Positions 1,371 to 10,040 of a stretch of 64,000 bases of DNA are shown here, in pieces; the first letter of the stretch is position 1, and each line of letters starts with the position of its first letter. The DNA is taken from assembly GCF_042231735.1 (NCBI RefSeq), contig NZ_CP102577.1, positions 3,103,281 through 3,167,280 of the forward strand. The letters run 5' to 3'. The notes beneath the pieces were generated by a model. It had not been told where the DNA came from, made no database searches, and saw only the letters and a program-made list of their open reading frames with translations. A program made the position numbers and the translations under genes. The stretch comes from Corallococcus exercitus. GTDB lineage: Bacteria; Myxococcota; Myxococcia; Myxococcales; Myxococcaceae.

Positions 1371-1527
1371 GTCCCAACCTCCCAGGTCCGTGCTCCTTCG
1401 AGATAGTGTGCCAAGGACACCATCCCTGTAAAGGCTGACGGCTCGCGCGGTGTTCACGGTTCATGCGAAGCTCTTGCGCCCTTCCTTCCAGGAACGGGAC
1501 ACCCCATCCTCACGAGAGGCGCTCCGG

Positions 1528-4500
1528 ATGCGTCGACTCACCCTGCTGACTGCCCTCTGCCTGTCTGTCCTTTCCGCCTGCTCTCCCGTGGAGCCTGAGG
1601 CACCGGATGAACCCGAGACGCCTGCGGATGCCTCGCAGACCCAGGCCCTGGAGTTGACCCAGGTCTTCAACACCCACGTGACGTGGACTGGCGCGACCAA
1701 GTGCAGCACCTGCCAGCGGCCTTCCTATGCCTGCTCGGACAACACGGGGAACTGGAACGGTGGGGTCCAGAGCTTCAGGGATCCCCTCCCTCCCGGCTGG
1801 GTGGCGATGGAAGTGCACGTGGGCATTGGCGCCCGCGGCTATGACGGTGGCATCTCCACGGTCCGGTTGAACAACCTGGTGCTGGGGTCCTTCGGGCTCC
1901 CCGACCTGAGCTGGTTCGGGTGTGGCGCCTGCACGCCGCAGCAGGTCCGCTACGCCACGACCGAGCAGACGGGGCTGCCCGGCTACCAATACGGCGCCAT
2001 CAATACCCTCACGCTGCGCACGGAAGAGACCAACTGCTTCGCCTTCGCCGACATCAGCATCAAGGCGGGGCGGCCCGTGCTCACGGTCAAGCCCACCGAG
2101 GTGTCGTTCGGCTCGGTGGCGGTGGGCGCGTCCGCCACGCAGAAGGTGACCTTGACGAACGAGGGCATCGCCCCGCTCGTCATCACCGCCATGAATGTCC
2201 CAAGTCCCTTCGGGCTGAACTCCATCACCCTGCCCTTCACGCTCAAGGCCCGCTCCAGCCTGGACGTGACCGTGACGTTCGCGCCGAAGGACGAGCGGGC
2301 CGCCTCTGGGAACCTGACCATCGTGAGCAGTGATCCCGACAAGCCGTCGCGGTTGATCAAGCTCGAGGGGACCGGCGGTGCCGCGAAACTCCAGCTCAGC
2401 CCGACCTCGCTCGACTTCGGTGCCGTGCGGGCTGGCACGAGCAAGAGCCTCCCCCTCCAGCTGAAGAACGTGGGGACCGTGCCGCTCACGCTCTCCGCCG
2501 TCCTGACCCAGGCCCCCTTCTCCGTCAGCGGCTTTGCCTCGGGGGACGTCGTGCTGCAGCCCTCGGGCGTCCTCCCGCTCACGGTGACCTTCACGGCGAC
2601 GGCCGGGGAAGCCAACCAGCCGCTGTACATCCAGTCCCAGGGGACCACCACCACGCCGATCGCGGAGGTCGCGCTGCACGGCACGGGCACCCAGCCCGCC
2701 ATCTCCGTGGCCGCGACCGCGATGGACTTCGGCGTGCACACCGCGGGCATCGAGCCGGTTCGCCAGACGCTGACGGTGGGCAACACGGGCCAGGATGATC
2801 TGATCCTCACCGCCTTCGACGTGGAGGCGCCCTTCACCGTGGAGGCCGGCCTGCCGCTGACCATCAAGCCCTGGGAACAGAAGGACCTGCCGGTGGCCTT
2901 CGCTCCCGGAGCGGGCCGCGCCACGAAGGACCTCACCCTGCGCAGCAACGACCCGAACCGTCCCGCGTTCAAGGTGTCCCTCTCCGGCACCGGCGTGAAG
3001 GTCCCCGCGCTCCAGGTCACCGGGCCGGATGGCGGCACGGCGCTGGATTTCGGCTCGCGGGAGGTCAGCTCCGTGAGCGCACCCCAGACCCTGACGCTCA
3101 AGAACGAGGGCGCGGGGACGCTCGTGGTGGAGTCCATCCAGGCACCCACCGGCTTCGCCGTGACGCCCGCGGGCCGGCTCAGCCTGACGCCCGGCGCCGC
3201 GACCCAGCTCCAGGTGACCTTCGAGCCCTCGCATACCGCCCAGTTCACGGAGGAGCTGACGGTGAGCGCGGATGGTCCTGGTGGCTCCACCCAGGTCGTG
3301 CCGCTCAGTGGGCAGGGCGTCGAGGGAAAGCTGACCGCCAATCCCTCCGCGCTGTCCTTCTCCCGGACGGAAGTGGGCAAGAGCAGCAAGGCGGTGCAGG
3401 TCACGCTCGTCAACACGGGGACGGAGGCGATCACCCTCAGCACCATCGCGGTGGCGGGACCGTTCTCGGCGGTGCTTCCGAAGCTGCCCAAGGAGCTCAC
3501 GCCGCGCGACGCCTTCACGATGGAGGTCACCTTCAGTCCGCTCGAGGACGGCCCCGCGTCCGGCGCGCTCCGGGTGTTCTCCAACGCGCCGTCGTCCCCC
3601 ACGGTGGTGAAGCTGGAGGGTGAGGGGCTCCAGGCCATCGCCCGGATGGCGAGCGACGTGATGGAGTTCGGCGGCCAGCGGGTGGGCGGCGTGAGCGCGC
3701 CACGGGAGCTCACGCTGTTCAACACGGGAAGCGAGTCGCTGGATGTGACGGCGGTGAACGTGAGCGGTCCGTTCCTGATCTCCGGACTCAACGTGGGCAC
3801 CAGCGTGCCGCCGCTCGGGAGCCGCACGTTCCAGGTCAGCTACAAGCCCACCGAGACCACGGCGGAGAACGGCGTGCTGGAGGTCCAGAGCAACGCGCCG
3901 CGCACCGCCCAGGTGACGCTGCGGGGAACGGGGACCATGGCTTCAATCGAGGCCTCCGTGACGACGCTGGCCTTCGGTTCCCAGTTCCTGGGCGCGGCCG
4001 AGCAGCGCGTCGTGGAGCTGCGCAACACCGGCACGAGCCCCATCACGCTCACGGGGTTGGATCCGGTGGACGGGTTCTCCGTGTCGGGATTGCCGCTGCC
4101 CCATCAGCTGGAGGCCGGCACCAGTCACGCGTTCTCCGTGGTGTTCGCGCCGCCGCGGCCGGGCGAGTACGCCGGGTCGCTCGCCGTGCGGCACGACGCG
4201 TCCGCCACCCCGCTGATGGTCGCGGTGCAGGGGACCGGCGTGGCGCAGGCGCTGACGGTGACGCCCGGAGCCATCGCCTTCGGCAACCAGCGGGTGAACG
4301 CCACCAGCCAGTCCCTGCCCCTGGAGCTCGTCAACACGGGCAACGTGCCCGTCACCGTGCAGGTGACCTCCTCCGACGCCGCCTTCCAGGTGGACACGCG
4401 CGCGGTGGCCGAGGCCATTCCGGCGGGAGGCCGGGCCTCGGTGTCGGTGACGTTCCACCCGACGCGCACGGGCACGGTGCGCGGAGAGGTCCGCGTGGTG

Positions 4501-4668
4501 CCGAGCGGAGGCGGACTCGCCCCGACCATCGTTCCCGTGGAGGGGATTGGCGAGGCCGTCACGGTGGAGGGCAGCGGCTGCTCCGTGGGTGGGGCTGGTG
4601 GTGCCGGGGTGCTGGCGATGTGGCTCCTCGCCATGGGGATGATCCGGCGCGGGCGGCGGCACCGCTGA
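1528..4668 (+). CDS. Cell-surface lipoprotein with ~9 tandem choice-of-anchor-D/ASH-like ~100-aa domains and a C-terminal MYXO-CTERM sorting tail
   Basis: It has a lipoprotein signal (MRRLTLLTALCLSVLSAC). It carries repeated modules with FGxVxVGxSxxxxVTLTNxGxxPL motifs. The C-terminus GSGCSVGGAGGAGVLAMWLLAMGMIRRGRRHR fits MYXO-CTERM (Cys + Gly-rich + hydrophobic + Arg cluster). Confidence 0.8.
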   Translation: MRRLTLLTALCLSVLSACSPVEPEAPDEPETPADASQTQALELTQVFNTHVTWTGATKCSTCQRPSYACSDNTGNWNGGVQSFRDPLPPGWVAMEVHVGIGARGYDGGISTVRLNNLVLGSFGLPDLSWFGCGACTPQQVRYATTEQTGLPGYQYGAINTLTLRTEETNCFAFADISIKAGRPVLTVKPTEVSFGSVAVGASATQKVTLTNEGIAPLVITAMNVPSPFGLNSITLPFTLKARSSLDVTVTFAPKDERAASGNLTIVSSDPDKPSRLIKLEGTGGAAKLQLSPTSLDFGAVRAGTSKSLPLQLKNVGTVPLTLSAVLTQAPFSVSGFASGDVVLQPSGVLPLTVTFTATAGEANQPLYIQSQGTTTTPIAEVALHGTGTQPAISVAATAMDFGVHTAGIEPVRQTLTVGNTGQDDLILTAFDVEAPFTVEAGLPLTIKPWEQKDLPVAFAPGAGRATKDLTLRSNDPNRPAFKVSLSGTGVKVPALQVTGPDGGTALDFGSREVSSVSAPQTLTLKNEGAGTLVVESIQAPTGFAVTPAGRLSLTPGAATQLQVTFEPSHTAQFTEELTVSADGPGGSTQVVPLSGQGVEGKLTANPSALSFSRTEVGKSSKAVQVTLVNTGTEAITLSTIAVAGPFSAVLPKLPKELTPRDAFTMEVTFSPLEDGPASGALRVFSNAPSSPTVVKLEGEGLQAIARMASDVMEFGGQRVGGVSAPRELTLFNTGSESLDVTAVNVSGPFLISGLNVGTSVPPLGSRTFQVSYKPTETTAENGVLEVQSNAPRTAQVTLRGTGTMASIEASVTTLAFGSQFLGAAEQRVVELRNTGTSPITLTGLDPVDGFSVSGLPLPHQLEAGTSHAFSVVFAPPRPGEYAGSLAVRHDASATPLMVAVQGTGVAQALTVTPGAIAFGNQRVNATSQSLPLELVNTGNVPVTVQVTSSDAAFQVDTRAVAEAIPAGGRASVSVTFHPTRTGTVRGEVRVVPSGGGLAPTIVPVEGIGEAVTVEGSGCSVGGAGGAGVLAMWLLAMGMIRRGRRHR

Positions 4669-4711
4669 GCCTGCGCACCTCCGCGGTGGCCGCCTCTCCC
4701 CGAGGCGGTCC

Positions 4712-4995
4712 AAACCTGTCCGACAGTCGGACAGGTTTCCGCGGCGGGAGCCCGTCAGGGCCGGGGGCCGCCGGGGGTGTCGAAACCGGTCCGATTGTCG
4801 GACAGGTTTCCGCGGCGGGAGCCCGTCAGGGCCGGGGGGCCGCCGGGGTTGCCACAACCTGTCCGACAGTCGGACAGGTTTCAGTGGCGGAAGTCCATCA
4901 GGGCCCGGAGCCCGCCGGGGTTGCCACAACCTGTCCGACAGTCGGACCGGTTCGTGCGACGGGCGGCCGGCGGCGAGCCCCGGCAGGGTTCTCAT
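4712..4995. repeat. Tandem array of 4 copies of a ~70-74 bp unit, each starting with the 19-bp perfect palindrome CTGTCCGACAGTCGGACAG (copy 2 degenerate: GGTCCGATTGTCGGACAG); intergenic between convergent genes
   Basis: The palindrome copies start at ~4716, 4786, 4860 and 4931. Units 1-3 are conserved along their whole length (GGTTTCCGCGGCGGGAGCCCGTCAGGGCCGGGGGCCGCCGGGG...). Unit 4 diverges after the palindrome. All six frames translate it as repeats (PVRQSDRF/PVRLSDRL), so it is non-coding. Confidence 0.85.
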
Positions 4996-5031
4996 GTTCC
5001 AGCCATCCGAGGAGGGCTGCTGCCCGAACGC

Positions 5032-6612
5032 TCAGGGAGGAGGCGGCGCGGGAATGGGACGAGCCGGAGCGGGCTCGCCCAGGATCAACAGCAGCTCCGC
5101 GCGGCGGTTCTCGCCCCGGCCCGCCTGTGTGCCATTGGAGCTCGCGGGCCGGCGTGCACCGAGGCCCCGGGCTTCCAGGCGGTGGGCCGGGACGCCCTTC
5201 CGCAAGAGGTAGTCGCGCACGGCTTCCGCGCGGGCCAGGGACAGGCGCTGGTTGGAGGCGGAAGAGCCCTCCGCGTCCGTGTGCCCTTCGATGACGACGC
5301 GCTCGACTTCCGGATGCTCCAGGAGCACCCGCGCCACCTGATCCAGCACGCGCGAGCGGCCCGGCAGCGTCGTCGCGCCGACCTCGAAGAAGACCTGGCC
5401 ATGGAGGACCAGGCGCTCGCGGGTCAGGGTGACGAGCGGGTCGCCGGACTCAGGGCAACCGCCGTACTCCCGCGTCCCCTTCTCATGGACGCAGGCATCC
5501 AGCGCGTCCACGACGCCGTCTCCGTCCGTGTCGGTCTCGATGCCTGACGAGTTCCCGGACGGCTCTGGCGTGGGCTCGGGAGGCGTGGGTTCAGGAGGCG
5601 TGGGCTCGGGCTCGAGCTGGGGTTCGGCGGGAGCACGTGGCAGCCCTTGGACGATCTCATAGACGATGTCCTCCGGGGGCGGAGGCGGTGCCTTGTCGAA
5701 GAGCAGGGCCAGTCCCGCAAGCACCCGGAAGCGAGGGGAACCCGGCTCCGAGCCAACCCCCGCCCCGCCCATGGCGAAGAATTCCCAGGGCCGAGCGGGT
5801 GCGTAGCGAAGGCCGCCGAGCAGCTCGCCGCTGGTGCGCTGCTGCCGCCAGGAGTACGCACCGTTCGCGGACACCTCCGCGCGGAAGGCGTAACCCACGG
5901 TGAGCCCCACACCGGCCCGCAGCTCGTTGCCCACGCCGTTGAGGCTGTCCACGCCGGAGTCCGTCGACACGGCGCGACGCAGGAGCACGCCCACTTCCAG
6001 CGCCGGAGCCACGGGCCCCCAGCGCTTGCCCATCATGATCCGTCCCTGCCCGCGGACACCCTGGTCACGAGCCAGCGCTCCCGAGCCGCCCACGGGCAAC
6101 CGCACGTCCAGGTCGAGCGCCAGGTGAAAGGCCTCGGGAGCGGAGGTCCCCAGCAATCCCAGCCGGGCCGCGAGTCGCGGTGCCCCCAACCCGCTGCGTG
6201 ACGGAGGGGAGATGGACAGCACGGTGCTCACATCCGCACCGCTCTGGTGGATGACGCCAGGAAGCTGGGCCTGAAGCTCCAGCCAGGGCAGCACACCGAC
6301 GGCCAGCGACACCAGTCCGGTGGTCCGGGACAGGACGAGCGGGTACTCGTCCGACCCGTTCAGGATGGTCAGGGGAGCCCGCTGGTAGTGCGCCATCAGC
6401 GAGACGCGCACCGCCCCGGGCGCCAGCAGCTCGCCGCTTCCGAGCGCCAACGGCCCCAGCCCCGGATTCGGATCCAGGCGCTCCAGGGAGAACGTCGGCA
6501 GGGGCGTGGCGTCCTGGGCGCGCGCGGGGGATACGAGCAGCATCAGTCCCAGCGCGGCCCCGCCACGGACGCATCGGTGCAAGGCCGGACCCATGCGCGC
6601 ATCATCCGTCAT
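5032..6612 (-). CDS. OmpA-family outer-membrane protein (N-terminal beta-barrel-like domain, Pro/Glu-rich linker, TSP3-like DxDxDG Ca-binding motif, C-terminal OmpA peptidoglycan-binding domain)
   Basis: The C-terminus ...HGQVFFEVGATTLPGRSRVLDQVARVL...VIEGHTDAEGSSASNQRLSLARAEAVRDYLL...NRRAEL is canonical OmpA_C. It has a DTDGDGVVDALDAC motif, an EPTPPEPTPPEPTP linker and a signal-peptide-like N-terminus (ALGLMLLVSPARAQD). The start is uncertain (6594/6612/6651). Confidence 0.85.
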   Translation of the reverse strand: MTDDARMGPALHRCVRGGAALGLMLLVSPARAQDATPLPTFSLERLDPNPGLGPLALGSGELLAPGAVRVSLMAHYQRAPLTILNGSDEYPLVLSRTTGLVSLAVGVLPWLELQAQLPGVIHQSGADVSTVLSISPPSRSGLGAPRLAARLGLLGTSAPEAFHLALDLDVRLPVGGSGALARDQGVRGQGRIMMGKRWGPVAPALEVGVLLRRAVSTDSGVDSLNGVGNELRAGVGLTVGYAFRAEVSANGAYSWRQQRTSGELLGGLRYAPARPWEFFAMGGAGVGSEPGSPRFRVLAGLALLFDKAPPPPPEDIVYEIVQGLPRAPAEPQLEPEPTPPEPTPPEPTPEPSGNSSGIETDTDGDGVVDALDACVHEKGTREYGGCPESGDPLVTLTRERLVLHGQVFFEVGATTLPGRSRVLDQVARVLLEHPEVERVVIEGHTDAEGSSASNQRLSLARAEAVRDYLLRKGVPAHRLEARGLGARRPASSNGTQAGRGENRRAELLLILGEPAPARPIPAPPPP

Positions 6613-6741
6613 GTTCCGCCCGGGGCGAAGGGGAATGGCGGCGCGCGGCATTCGTGCATCGTCACCGGAATGGATGCGACTCCGATTCCATTCCAGAATC
6701 CCAGACTAGACTGCGCCGGCAGCGCCCCCCACGGAAACACG

Positions 6742-6803
6742 CTCAGACAAGGGTAGCCACAAGGCATCCTGACACAAGGCAAGAAGGCCAAAAGGACAAG
6801 AAG
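6742..6803 (+). promoter_or_regulatory. Cluster of short direct repeats (G/C)ACAAGG x3 plus AAGAAGG/AAAAGGA variants in the divergent intergenic region at the left edge of the AT-rich island
   Basis: agaCAAGGgtagccaCAAGGcatcctgacaCAAGGcaAGAAGGccaAAAGGacAAGAAGc lies ~80-130 bp upstream of the island ORF at 6879. These are possible transcription-factor sites or a promoter. There is no functional evidence. Confidence 0.25.
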
Positions 6804-6878
6804 CAGAGTAGTCCGGCACGCATCCCTGATAACCTGCTGCCCATGCAAAACCTACAGGCACATTGGGACAAAAAATGA

Positions 6879-8021
6879 ATGAACAAGCACCTTAAGCTCG
6901 ACGTGCAAGTCGCTGAAGATGACCCAATTCGAAAATCATTGCTCAACCAACGGGTACAGCACTTAGAATCTGATGGTCTGAGTGTTCCCGAAGATGAGCT
7001 TCTTACATATTCCTTGTTCTACGAGTGGGACAACTCTCCAGGATGGCGGAGCTACGCCGATCTGAACAGGAAGCTTCCAGAGCGACGCACCCGGTTTGGG
7101 GACTTCCTAACAACAGACGCAGAAGAATCCTACCGACTTCGGCGCAAACCAGTATCGGACATCATTGAGTCGCTGGGCATTGGAGCAGCTCTCTCTGTCT
7201 CAGCTAGATTACTAGGGGTAACCGAGGCAGATTTCCTGAAAGTCCCAGACACCTCACTGGGAAGAACATTGGACTTCGAAAGAAGCTATGTCGCATCCGA
7301 TGGCGATCACTCCTACCGAGTAGAAGCCAAAGGAACGCACGATGGAAAGAGCGTCTCTTCAGCTCTCGACTCAATTAAAGCCAAGAAAATCTTTGACCGC
7401 AATTCAAAACAAGACGATGCTACCCTTGTTGGTGTTGTTTTCGATTTATCACTAGAGCGAAAACGCACATCCAAGGTAATTATCACTGACCCACCGGCAG
7501 AACCGATCCCCGAAAATCCAATTCTTATAAAACTATGGGCCCGACTTGGCTTTTACTCAGCGGCGCTGCGAACGATTTCCCGTGGCTCAATCACTGCAGG
7601 ATTTGCACAGCGACTCCCCGTCACAAGAGCACTTGGGGATCAGTGGCGGAAGGTTGATGGAATACCTCTCGTCAACCCAAGCGGCTATCCACTTGCTGTC
7701 TCATGGAACAAAAGCGGCATAGTTACACTTGCTTCACGGGAGCGGATTTTTGGACGATTCTTTGGCCCTGCATCAAAATCAACACGCAGGCAAACATCCT
7801 CTGAAGATGTGTCCATCTTCATCGGCTTGACTGAAAACACAATAGAACTGCTCACCAAACAGCGCCTCGAAGAAATAATATACCACAAAGAACGAGAAAG
7901 AGTTGCGGAAGCGAGCTACCCAGCCTATTCGCCATTTGAGGCTCGACCGCCATTTCGCTTTCAACATCTGCGCGTTTTTTCTTCGGGTGTTGTTGTGGGA
8001 TACCTTATCGGCAACGTTTGA
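6879..8021 (+). CDS. Hypothetical protein (380 aa) encoded on AT-rich island; no confidently recognisable domain
   Basis: The 1143-nt ORF sits in a region visibly poorer in GC than the flanks (roughly 45-50% by eye against ~70%). Codon use is atypical for the host (many A/T-ending codons). Weak motifs only: LDFERSYVASDGDHSYRVEAKG (D-x17-ExK, PD-(D/E)xK-like) and IIESLGIGAAL ... ITDPPAEP (loosely SAM-MTase motif I/IV-like but lacking the aromatic residue). The start has no obvious RBS. Confidence 0.55.
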   Translation: MNKHLKLDVQVAEDDPIRKSLLNQRVQHLESDGLSVPEDELLTYSLFYEWDNSPGWRSYADLNRKLPERRTRFGDFLTTDAEESYRLRRKPVSDIIESLGIGAALSVSARLLGVTEADFLKVPDTSLGRTLDFERSYVASDGDHSYRVEAKGTHDGKSVSSALDSIKAKKIFDRNSKQDDATLVGVVFDLSLERKRTSKVIITDPPAEPIPENPILIKLWARLGFYSAALRTISRGSITAGFAQRLPVTRALGDQWRKVDGIPLVNPSGYPLAVSWNKSGIVTLASRERIFGRFFGPASKSTRRQTSSEDVSIFIGLTENTIELLTKQRLEEIIYHKERERVAEASYPAYSPFEARPPFRFQHLRVFSSGVVVGYLIGNV

Positions 8022-8037
8022 GGCAATTGGGCCACCT

Positions 8038-8163
8038 CTCTATAGTCGCAGATTGACGCGGATTCCACGGGAGTGGCATCGGCAGCGCATGGCAACCGCT
8101 CGCTGATTGCGTTGGTAGAGGGGCACACTGAGGTCAAGTCCAACCCCGCTCCGATCTATAGTT
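8038..8163 (+). promoter_or_regulatory. Two copies of the palindromic hexamer CTATAG in similar context (cTCTATAGTcgcag / aTCTATAGTtcacg), 117 bp apart, in the 222-bp gap between the two island genes
   Basis: CTATAG is A/T-rich and self-complementary, so it is unexpected in this GC-rich genome. The pair lies upstream of the GTG start of the second island gene. It is a possible operator. Confidence 0.25.
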
Positions 8164-8242
8164 CACGAACGCGAACGCGCAGGCTGCGCGCGAGTAGAGT
8201 GCACAGGTCCAGTGCCGCAGTTCACGGGGGGAGGAGTCTAAA

Positions 8243-8770
8243 GTGCCTGAATTCTACGTTGAGGGGCCGTTCATTGTGCCGTGCATTGCAAAGGGGCATG
8301 GGAAAGTCGTCGACACGAAACGCTTGAAGGAGTTCTGGGAAGACCTCGGCGAGGGCAGGTCGTCCAGTTACGGCTGTTACGTTTTCGGGATGCAAGTCGG
8401 ACGAGGCCTCGTGCCAATCTATGTCGGCAAGGCCACCAAGAGTTTCAAGCAAGAGTGCTTCACGCTCGACAAGTTGTTCAAGACCAACGCATCGCTGCTT
8501 CACTGGAAGCGAGGCACCCCTGTTCTCTTTCTTGTGCCTTTGGAACGCAAGAGAGGCCGGGTTAACGCAGCCTTGATCGCTACTGCCGAGGAATTCCTCA
8601 TTCAGAACGCCGTCGTCCGTAATCCTAACCTTGCGAATGTTCGTGGCACCGAGCAGGAATCATGGGGAATTGCCGGTGTTCTTCGTGGTGGAAAAGGAAA
8701 GCCATCCGCAAGCGCGCGGGACTTCAAACGGATGATGGGGCTGAGACAGCGTTCCTCCCAGCCAGGATGA
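8243..8770 (+). CDS. Small GIY-YIG-like nuclease-domain protein (175 aa), second gene of AT-rich island
   Basis: It has a GTG start with a GGAGGAG RBS at 8228-8234. SYGCYVFGMQVGRGLVPIYVGKATKSF parallels the UvrC/I-TevI GIY-(x10-13)-YIG motif (cf. UvrC [21 protein letters not shown]). Downstream, ATAEEFLIQNAVVRNPNLAN fits the conserved Glu ... Asn of the fold. The canonical Arg after YIG is not obvious. Confidence 0.5.
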   Translation: MPEFYVEGPFIVPCIAKGHGKVVDTKRLKEFWEDLGEGRSSSYGCYVFGMQVGRGLVPIYVGKATKSFKQECFTLDKLFKTNASLLHWKRGTPVLFLVPLERKRGRVNAALIATAEEFLIQNAVVRNPNLANVRGTEQESWGIAGVLRGGKGKPSASARDFKRMMGLRQRSSQPG

Positions 8771-9096
8771 CTCCAGGATTGCAAAGTGACGACGTCGGTG
8801 GGGCTAGTGGGGTCCTCGATGCTGTTTCTCGCCTGCTGATCTGATGCGACGCGGGACACACCGCCGGAGCCGCAGGCCACGAAGGCAGACAGCCCCGTGC
8901 ACATCCTGGCGCCGCATAACAACTGTGACGAAACGTGGATGCTGGTTGTTGCCGCGTCTACAGCGACCGCGTGCCCTGCAACAATGGCATTGAGATGTAT
9001 GCCATCTGGACGCCGGGCGGCTGGTGCAGCCCGCGCGACGTCGCCAAAAGCAGCGAGGGCCCTGAGCTGGTCTGCCCGCAGTGACGCATCACGGAC

Positions 9097-9124
9097 CTCC
9101 CTGCCCTCAGCACGGGCAGGGAGG
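9097..9124 (-). terminator. GC-rich hairpin (11-bp stem CCTCCCTGCCC/GGGCAGGGAGG, 6-nt loop) 14 nt downstream of the folD stop
   Basis: The inverted repeat was read directly. No U-tract follows on the minus strand, so intrinsic-terminator function is uncertain. Confidence 0.35.
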
Positions 9125-9137
9125 CCCAACAATCACA

Positions 9138-9989
9138 TCACATCACGCCGCGCTGTGCCGCCTCCAGCGTGTTCTTCATCAGCATCGCAATGGTCATCGG
9201 CCCCACGCCGCCAGGGACCGGCGTGATGAATGACGCGCGCTCCGCCGCCGCGGCGAACTCCACGTCTCCCACCAGCTTGCCATCCGCCTTGCGGTTCATG
9301 CCCACGTCAATCACCACCGCGCCGGGCTTGATCCACGCGCCCTTCACCAGCTCCGGCACGCCCACCGCCACCACCAGGATGTCCGCCTGGGCCACCTCCG
9401 CCGGCAGGTCGCTCTTGCGGTGGCACACCGTCACCGTCGCGTCCTTCTGCAGCAGCATCAGCGCCTGGGGCTTGCCCACGATGTTGCTTCGCCCCACCAC
9501 CACCGCGCGCTTGCCCGCCGGATTGCACCCGACCTCTTCCAAGAGCCGCATCACGCCGTAGGGCGTGCACGCCCGCGTCGCCGGCCGGCCCAGCAGCAGG
9601 TTTCCCGCGTTCATCGGGTGGAAGCCGTCCGCGTCCTTCTCCGGCTTCACCGCGGAGATGATGGCGTCCGCGTCCAGGTGCTTGGGCAACGGCAGCTGCA
9701 CCAGGATGCCGTGCACCGCCGGGTCCTCGTTCAGCCGGTGCACCAGCGCCAGGAGCTCCTCCTGGGTGATGTTCTCATCCGGGTGGTGCTCCCAGGAGTT
9801 GAAGCCCACCTCCTCGGCGGCCTTCTTCTTCCCCGTCACGTAAATCTTGGAAGCCGGGTCCTCACCCACGCGCACCACGGCGAGTCCCGGGGTGATGCCG
9901 CGCTCCGCCTTCAGGCGCGCCACCTCCTCCTTGATCTCCGCCCGCACGCGCGCCGCCACTGCCTTGCCGTCGATCAACTGAGCCGTCAT
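9138..9989 (-). CDS. folD: Bifunctional 5,10-methylene-THF dehydrogenase / methenyl-THF cyclohydrolase
   Basis: [27 protein letters not shown]...[21 protein letters not shown]...[23 protein letters not shown] is canonical FolD over 284 aa. The ORF-track N-terminal extension to 10418 lacks homology. Confidence 0.92.
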
Positions 9990-10040
9990 GAGACCCACCT
10001 TATGCAAGACTGGCCCTGCACAAGGGAGCGAAGCGAAGGC

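Follow-up and report, generated by a model that had tools for sequence, protein, structure and literature searches.

A low-GC gene of Corallococcus exercitus represents an undescribed protein family with a predicted PD-(D/E)xK nuclease core and a possible role in defence

The subject of this analysis is gene 1, located at positions 6879..8021 of the + strand (stop codon included) of a 64,000-nucleotide stretch of the Corallococcus exercitus contig NZ_CP102577.1, hereafter called the window. The exact protein is represented by a single database record, annotated as "hypothetical protein". We lean towards the view that gene 1 encodes a stand-alone PD-(D/E)xK nuclease, acquired horizontally and likely to serve as a single-gene anti-phage or anti-plasmid defence; its catalysis, substrate and defence role are what we infer here. 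The nuclease fold itself can be assigned with considerable assurance: it is supported by the sequence motif and by the predicted topology, though without a significant match to a known structure. What is new is a previously undescribed family, assigned here to the PD-(D/E)xK superfamily, whose core is flanked by novel domains.

The original prediction, made from the letters of the window and their open reading frames (ORFs), stated that gene 1 has no recognisable family. This holds for the curated libraries, as nothing significant was found for the protein in Pfam, NCBIfam, PADLOC, PHROGs or among the PDB sequences, and a word-indexed homologue search, carried out with the single protein and with a 51-sequence profile, brought up nothing beyond the query and one member of the family. 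However, an exhaustive HMMER scan over 1.84 billion cluster representatives revealed 289 representatives with E<=1e-3 (158 with E<=1e-10, 19 with E<=1e-30), and the label of a family-less protein is therefore wrong. Among the matches listed, the proteins are mostly ~370-420 residues long and align with gene 1 over most of their length. The nearest homologue exhibits only 42% identity, and the 90% cluster of the gene 1 protein has one member. Twenty representatives were looked up: almost all are singletons from metagenomes or metagenome-assembled genomes, Sorangiineae, Kofleriaceae, other Myxococcota and Leptospira meyeri are among the sources that are named, and not one of the 20 has been given a functional name. 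Scans of 51 members, one by one, against Pfam, PADLOC and NCBIfam gave isolated chance-level matches only; PADLOC v2.0.0, including its candidate (PDC) models, did not match gene 1 and produced a best E-value of 0.0086, for one of the 51 members. The longer members (P0152, P0190, P0193 and others) contain no informative fused domains. Altogether, gene 1 belongs to an undescribed, uncurated and sparsely distributed family of ~400-residue proteins.

The multiple alignment of 51 family sequences (A1; mean column identity 30%) reveals a family-defining signature, D132-x16-E149-x-K151, whose conservation is far beyond chance. In gene 1 the motif reads LDF...VEAKG and occupies positions 7272..7331 (+), with the codons of the three residues at 7272-7274, 7323-7325 and 7329-7331. 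D132 and E149 are present in all 51 sequences, as are K169, K170, G185, D204, P205 and Y226, while the K151 column contains 49 Lys and 2 Arg residues. Nearly invariant are E97 (49/51), G100 (50/51), G152 (50/51), R222 (50/51), R245 (49/51) and Q328 (49/51), and further conserved positions include E49 and G55 in the N-terminal domain and G292, G316, G370 and G374 in the C-terminal region. The alignment thus shows the combination typical of PD-(D/E)xK enzymes, namely an acidic residue, an E-x-K element and a helix Glu (E97). Of two mutually exclusive readings of the gene 1 motifs that had been proposed beforehand, the one that pointed to PD-(D/E)xK nucleases is borne out in the form D-x16-E-x-K. 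The only Pfam trace for the gene 1 protein, a sub-threshold match to Lmo2445-like_C (PF22416; E-value 0.26, residues 127-158), spans exactly the hairpin that carries D132...E149-x-K151, and in one family member there is a sub-threshold trace of the EcoRV-family endonucleases (E-value 0.011). Profile searches of the PDB were empty or gave meaningless results, whether run with the full family profile, with the core alone (A4) or with the C-terminal part (A5).

An AlphaFold2 model built with the family alignment has a pLDDT (predicted local distance difference test) score of 86.6 and a predicted template modelling (pTM) score of 0.81, while the single-sequence model (pLDDT 31) was useless. The former suggests three parts. 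The N-terminal domain (residues 1-90; 6879..7148, +) is modelled as beta-alpha-alpha-beta-alpha, with a long helix and two short strands, and has no match in PDB or Pfam. The predicted PD-(D/E)xK catalytic core (residues 93-205; 7155..7493, +), delineated by the conserved residues, the order of secondary structures and weak fold matches, begins with helix 93-112 (with E97 and G100), which is followed by a short bridge and strand 136-140, strand 145-154 (E149, K151, G152), helix 159-176 (K169, K170), strand 182-191 (G185) and strand 199-203, which leads into D204-P205. In the model, the alpha-beta-beta-beta-alpha-beta order of the PD-(D/E)xK fold is reproduced, and the hairpin arms (~132-140 and 145-154) carry D132 and E149-x-K151, respectively. 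The C-terminal region (residues 210-380; 7506..8018, +), for which no PDB sequence match was found, is predicted to comprise two long helices, 214-233 and 237-259, followed by a domain rich in beta-strands that also has two short helices.

Fold searches with this model reported weak matches only, which are nonetheless thematically coherent in three libraries and enriched in PD-(D/E)xK nucleases. Foldseek against PDB (best E-value 0.02) placed CinB on top, and further PD-(D/E)xK-type matches included the influenza PA endonuclease, a bunyavirus cap-snatching endonuclease and Cap4; against BFVD (best E-value 0.006) it reported UL24, a RecB-family exonuclease, exodeoxyribonuclease 8 and a protein annotated as "PD-(D/E)XK nuclease superfamily protein". 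Other weak matches were LHK-Exo, the 3k93 exonuclease and Hjc. The best, albeit weak, structural neighbours of the model are the nuclease domains of CinB/CidB, the lambda-exonuclease-like LHK-Exo and the archaeal Hjc.

The family-wide conservation of D132, E149 and K151, the predicted topology and the dominance of PD-(D/E)xK proteins among the weak fold matches support the nuclease reading. We also considered that gene 1 might not encode a nuclease at all, with the D...ExK pattern and the topology having arisen by convergence in a protein with another activity or with a structural or regulatory role. That the gene 1 protein resembles no characterised protein significantly, in sequence or in structure, is compatible with this explanation, as is the location of D132 in a low-confidence loop of the model. 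However, convergence would have to account for an invariant acidic/acidic/lysine triad with canonical spacing, located on a predicted beta-hairpin and preceded by a helix with a conserved Glu, for the many independent PD-(D/E)xK proteins among the weak matches in three libraries, and for a genomic context of restriction-modification (R-M) and defence genes (see below); we regard it as unlikely.

The second of the two earlier readings interpreted gene 1 as an alpha-class N6A/N4C DNA methyltransferase, which together with the adjacent GIY-YIG-like gene 2 would form a type II R-M system. The residues on which it was based are indeed present and partly conserved in the family (E97-x-x-G100 and D204-P205), and the two genes are adjacent, co-oriented and located in one low-GC islet. 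Nonetheless, neither the gene 1 protein nor any of the 51 members matched N6_Mtase, MethyltransfD12, Eco57I or similar profiles from Pfam and NCBIfam, whereas the same profile library readily detected HsdM in neighbouring genes of family members. The presumed S-adenosylmethionine (SAM) loop, E97-S-L-G100-I-G102, is modelled within helix 93-112 and not in a strand-loop-helix arrangement, and its second glycine is variable (G102 column: 31 Gly, 18 Ala, 2 Ser). P206 is found in 38 of the 51 sequences, and the aromatic residue expected after the PP dipeptide is missing (A207 in gene 1). The core sheet, with only 4-5 strands, is too small for the seven-stranded Rossmann-like fold, and no methyltransferase or Rossmann structure appeared among the fold-search matches listed. 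Finally, the families of gene 1 and gene 2 never occur together in 52 other loci, and homologues of gene 2 are solitary, without a methyltransferase. The methyltransferase/R-M reading was rejected: with no methyltransferase profile, a helix-buried "SAM loop", no aromatic residue and no linkage to gene 2, it is effectively refuted, and we give it next to no weight.

The predicted nuclease gene itself is real and of foreign origin. The ORF comprises 380 codons from the ATG at 6879 and lies, together with gene 2 (8243..8770, +; 175 residues, GTG start), in a low-GC islet (~6700-8850) within a chromosome segment of ~70% GC. The islet is bordered on the left by an ompA-like gene (OmpA-family; 5032-6651, - strand), divergent from gene 1, and on the right by folD (9138-10010, - strand). 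The GC content and the GC content at third codon positions (GC3) are 0.492 and 0.454 for gene 1, 0.557 and 0.642 for gene 2, 0.722 and 0.843 for the ompA-like gene, and 0.684 and 0.928 for folD; gene 2 is thus intermediate in GC between gene 1 and the host, so that the islet comprises two genes of unlike composition, both of them distinct from the host. At the islet boundaries we looked for tRNA genes, flanking direct repeats, Rfam RNAs and an integrase, and found none. We conclude that gene 1 was acquired horizontally by this C. exercitus strain.

The intergenic region shared by gene 1 and the divergent ompA-like gene (6652..6878; GC 0.55) contains no sigma-70-like promoter detectable by the promoter scan. 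The Shine-Dalgarno sequence of gene 1 is weak (GGGA ~10 nt 5' of the ATG, in an A-rich leader), and the original prediction was roughly right in that the gene lacks a convincing ribosome-binding site, but unusual expression, which it took this to hint at, does not follow: the weak site is unremarkable. The start is sound, because 6879 is the earliest start codon past the in-frame upstream stop and the N-terminal strand of the protein lines up with the N-termini of the homologues in the 51-sequence alignment.

Although gene 1 and gene 2 share the islet, their adjacency is a local coincidence of two separately acquired genes, of which gene 2 is mobile in its own right. Gene 2 is preceded by a strong ribosome-binding site (GGAGGAG), and its 171 homologues of ~167 residues share a GIY-YIG-like pattern, G44-C-Y46-x-F48...Y60-V-G62-K-A...E116...N127/N132 (alignment A6; also written GCYVF-x10-YVGKA for its first part), with no profile match in Pfam or PDB. 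When the profile HMMs of both families were run on six-frame translations of the 52 fetched loci (referred to below as L001, L002 and so on), the gene 1 profile was found in 45 loci, the gene 2 profile in 7, and the two overlapped in none. The gene 2 homologues (L001-L007) occur singly, in unrelated surroundings, and no methyltransferase gene was found beside them. One homologue, 92% identical, is located alone in a different locus (L001), and the DNA similarity between that locus and the window extends only from ~70-100 nt 5' of the gene 2 start to its stop codon. The zero co-occurrence, the solitary gene 2 homologues and the restriction of similarity to gene 2 and its leader argue against a partnership. 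Accordingly, the family of gene 1 is solitary, and neither the notion of gene 1 as the larger, possibly novel partner of the GIY-YIG-like gene nor that of a type II R-M system whose endonuclease would be the GIY-YIG protein (0/52 loci) is upheld, the adjacency being seen only here.

A variant of the pairing idea, in which the two genes form a strain-specific two-gene system absent elsewhere (cooperating nucleases, or a toxin with its regulator), could draw on their arrangement on the same strand, 221 nt apart, in one low-GC islet between the ompA-like gene and folD. Against it stand, in addition to the zero co-occurrence in the 52 loci, the different GC3 of the two genes (0.45 vs 0.64), the presence of gene 2's own strong ribosome-binding site and of a promoter-like site at 8018-8046, 5' of gene 2, and the finding of the gene 2 unit alone elsewhere at ~90% nucleotide identity, with the homology ending at the stop codon. 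We consider such a system highly unlikely.

A few further observations were made on gene 2. Compared with its 92%-identical homologue (L001, ~5490-5504), it carries an indel just before the stop codon (window 8755-8770), which provides the protein with an 8-residue C-terminal extension (…MMGL-RQRSSQPG* vs …MMGM*). The exact gene 2 protein is missing among the database matches and may be unannotated or otherwise annotated in the source record. Another homologue has a reverse transcriptase and an nSTAND3 NTPase in its vicinity (L002), and yet another adjoins an IS200-type Y1 transposase (L004).

Analyses of genomic context provide the clues as to the function of the predicted nuclease. All-vs-all BLASTP comparisons of neighbouring ORFs (>=80 residues, and then >=40 residues within 1.5 kb, E<=1e-2) revealed no conserved neighbour, apart from hsdM-like genes, seen in 3-4 of ~40 distinct loci, and matches between near-duplicate contigs. 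In most loci the GC content of the family gene is below that of its flanks (e.g. 0.54 vs 0.71 in L009, 0.46 vs 0.66 in L038), and in L009 the gene forms a single-gene islet in a chromosome of 71% GC. Among the loci with flanks of sufficient length for interpretation, immunity genes are frequent neighbours. Family members (FAM) are associated with type I R-M genes in the arrangements hsdR-hsdM-hsdS-FAM (L036), hsdS-FAM (L037) and FAM-hsdM (L040), and in two loci from Sorangiineae (L049 and L050) the family gene is oriented divergently from a type I operon, hsdM-hsdS-hsdR. In L043 an Eco57I/MmeI-type methylase is encoded two genes 5' of the family gene. The other neighbours include genes for GmrSD, Dcm-Vsr, a TIR protein (L033), an MrfA-Zn/S24 protein (L027) and a patatin (L026), a Gp49/Abi_C island beside the family gene of a Leptospira locus (L051), and an MqsA-containing island of unannotated genes (L045-L047). 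DUF3644 HEPN proteins are direct neighbours in L013 and L017; DUF3644 corresponds to HEC-08, which has been shown to defend against phage (bioRxiv 10.1101/2024.01.29.577857). The absence of a conserved neighbour, together with contexts rich in defence genes, is the pattern of a solitary, Type IV-like nuclease, and the association of the family with defence is suggestive. Because the neighbourhoods of the family often contain R-M operons and other immunity genes, we consider an anti-phage or anti-plasmid role the most likely one.

A gene of the DUF2130 family is located 3' of the gene 1 homologue in L049 (14742-15191, at ~6.5 kb) and in the unrelated L052 (10435-11418, at ~2.2 kb), in both cases also near R-M or GmrSD genes; it may be another resident of defence islands.

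Single-gene low-GC islets in high-GC chromosomes, free of an integrase, tRNA genes and flanking repeats, could also be produced by a selfish nuclease, either a free-standing homing-type enzyme or an element-encoded protein with a recombination or anti-defence function. The patchy distribution of the family, with its many singletons, would agree with this, and so would the transposase genes beside or inside some copies, namely a DDE transposase gene in L035 and a Y2_Tnp gene next to or inside the family copy in L052. However, there is no conserved insertion site or target gene, and each locus has different neighbours; neither phage and plasmid collections (tblastn with one member) nor viral contigs (pattern scan) yielded the family; it turns up repeatedly within or next to operons for R-M and other immunity functions, as defence genes typically do; and with ~400 residues and two extra conserved domains its members exceed the typical PD-(D/E)xK homing enzymes, which are smaller. 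A selfish character of gene 1 thus appears improbable.

In L035, the DDE transposase gene (2807-4537) splits the gene 1 homologue into two parts (2027-2740 and 4674-5051), and hence at least one copy of the family is being inactivated.

For the favoured stand-alone nuclease we propose the following mode of action. To the putative active site, the first helix of the core would contribute E97, the beginning of strand two D132 and strand three E149-x-K151, with a possible contribution of K169/K170 from the following helix; cleavage would be metal-dependent. The domains formed by residues 1-90 and 210-380 would presumably be responsible for target recognition, oligomerisation or regulation. The protein would work alone, with neither a cognate methyltransferase nor a conserved partner. 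Since the gene travels alone, without a methyltransferase, the DNA of the host would have to be spared by other means: the enzyme could cut only DNA that is modified or otherwise foreign (Type IV-like), or it could stay inactive until infection (abortive-infection-like).

By analogy, the gene 1 protein may work most like the solitary PD-(D/E)xK restriction enzymes such as Mrr, although it fails every named-family profile test. Mrr is a single-gene Type IV (modification-dependent) restriction enzyme with a D...(D/E)xK core plus extra domains. Gene 1 resembles it in being a single, horizontally acquired gene without a cognate methyltransferase, and the gene 1 family in that extra domains surround its D...(D/E)xK core and that it is often located beside type I R-M and GmrSD genes. 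On the other hand, gene 1 lacks Mrr_cat or any other Pfam match as well as a recognisable winged-helix, SRA, EVE or other modified-base-reading domain, and its core is located in the middle of the protein and not at the C-terminus. A comparison of the core profile with the N-terminal nuclease domain of one HsdR protein (PF04313) by hhalign placed the D...EAK residues in register, with "KTLDF...VEAKG" of the family against "KRFDY...VEAKK" of HsdR, but the match was not significant, and gene 1 differs from HsdR by the lack of a helicase/translocase module and of a methyltransferase partner and by its other flanking domains.

The family also bears a likeness to the single-gene or embedded defence nucleases and RNases identified through "guilt by embedding", e.g. 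HEC-02 (NERD) and HEC-08 (DUF3644) (bioRxiv 10.1101/2024.01.29.577857). Members of the gene 1 family are likewise found in or beside larger immune operons, and HEC-08-type proteins are encoded next to two of them (L013 and L017); the family differs in matching no PADLOC v2.0.0 model.

Several points weigh against the proposed defence nuclease. D132 falls into the sole segment of the model with pLDDT <50 (residues 129-133), and the query of the fold searches was the complete three-domain model rather than its core alone. The defence association is anecdotal, with a raw count of about a dozen of ~40 loci, many of them short contigs, and in the window itself the neighbours of gene 1 are only housekeeping genes and gene 2. 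The Type IV variant of the proposal has no direct support, as Pfam, PDB and fold searches recognised no modified-base reader domain in the gene 1 protein. That the family is not seen in phage, plasmid and viral-contig collections is neutral with respect to defence.

Other features were noted around the islet. The gap between the ompA-like gene and a convergent gene with immunoglobulin (Ig)-like repeats (1450-4668) contains a 72-nt tandem repeat (4713-4952; 3.4 copies, 87% matches), each unit of which carries a near-perfect palindrome, AACCTGTCCGACAGTCGGACAGGTT; it may represent an element similar to repetitive extragenic palindromes (REP) or miniature inverted-repeat transposable elements (MITE), or a terminator array. 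The convergent gene encodes a secreted or anchored protein of 1072 residues with repeated HYDIN/ASH/DUF1573-type Ig-like domains and a hydrophobic C-terminal tail. On the other side of the islet, the 367 nt at 8771-9137 are of intermediate GC (0.64) and contain no convincing gene; a minus-strand ORF (8602-9132, 176 residues) has no family match. A 14-bp GC-rich hairpin directly past the stop codon of folD (9093-9127) is probably the folD terminator.

Altogether, an apparent orphan with ambiguous motifs has turned out to belong to a defined family that counts at least 289 sequence clusters and has an invariant signature and a confident structure prediction. The annotation of the islet is corrected as well: it is not an R-M system but a pair of independently acquired solitary genes, and for this reason no methylation motif is expected from it. 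More speculatively, the family as a whole could constitute an unrecognised single-gene immune system, in which a PD-(D/E)xK effector fused to two novel-fold domains for sensing or regulation would act alone on phage or plasmid DNA, the one-gene cassette moving between distant bacteria (Myxococcota, Leptospira, sediment lineages) and landing in or beside R-M operons; we regard this possibility as attractive but, on balance, doubtful. A new nuclease family in defence islands would be unsurprising in itself, yet this one is well defined, compact and testable. If the defence role is true, the single-gene immune systems would gain a compact nuclease that needs no methyltransferase and has two unassigned domains, and Pfam, PADLOC and DefenseFinder would have a new family to model.

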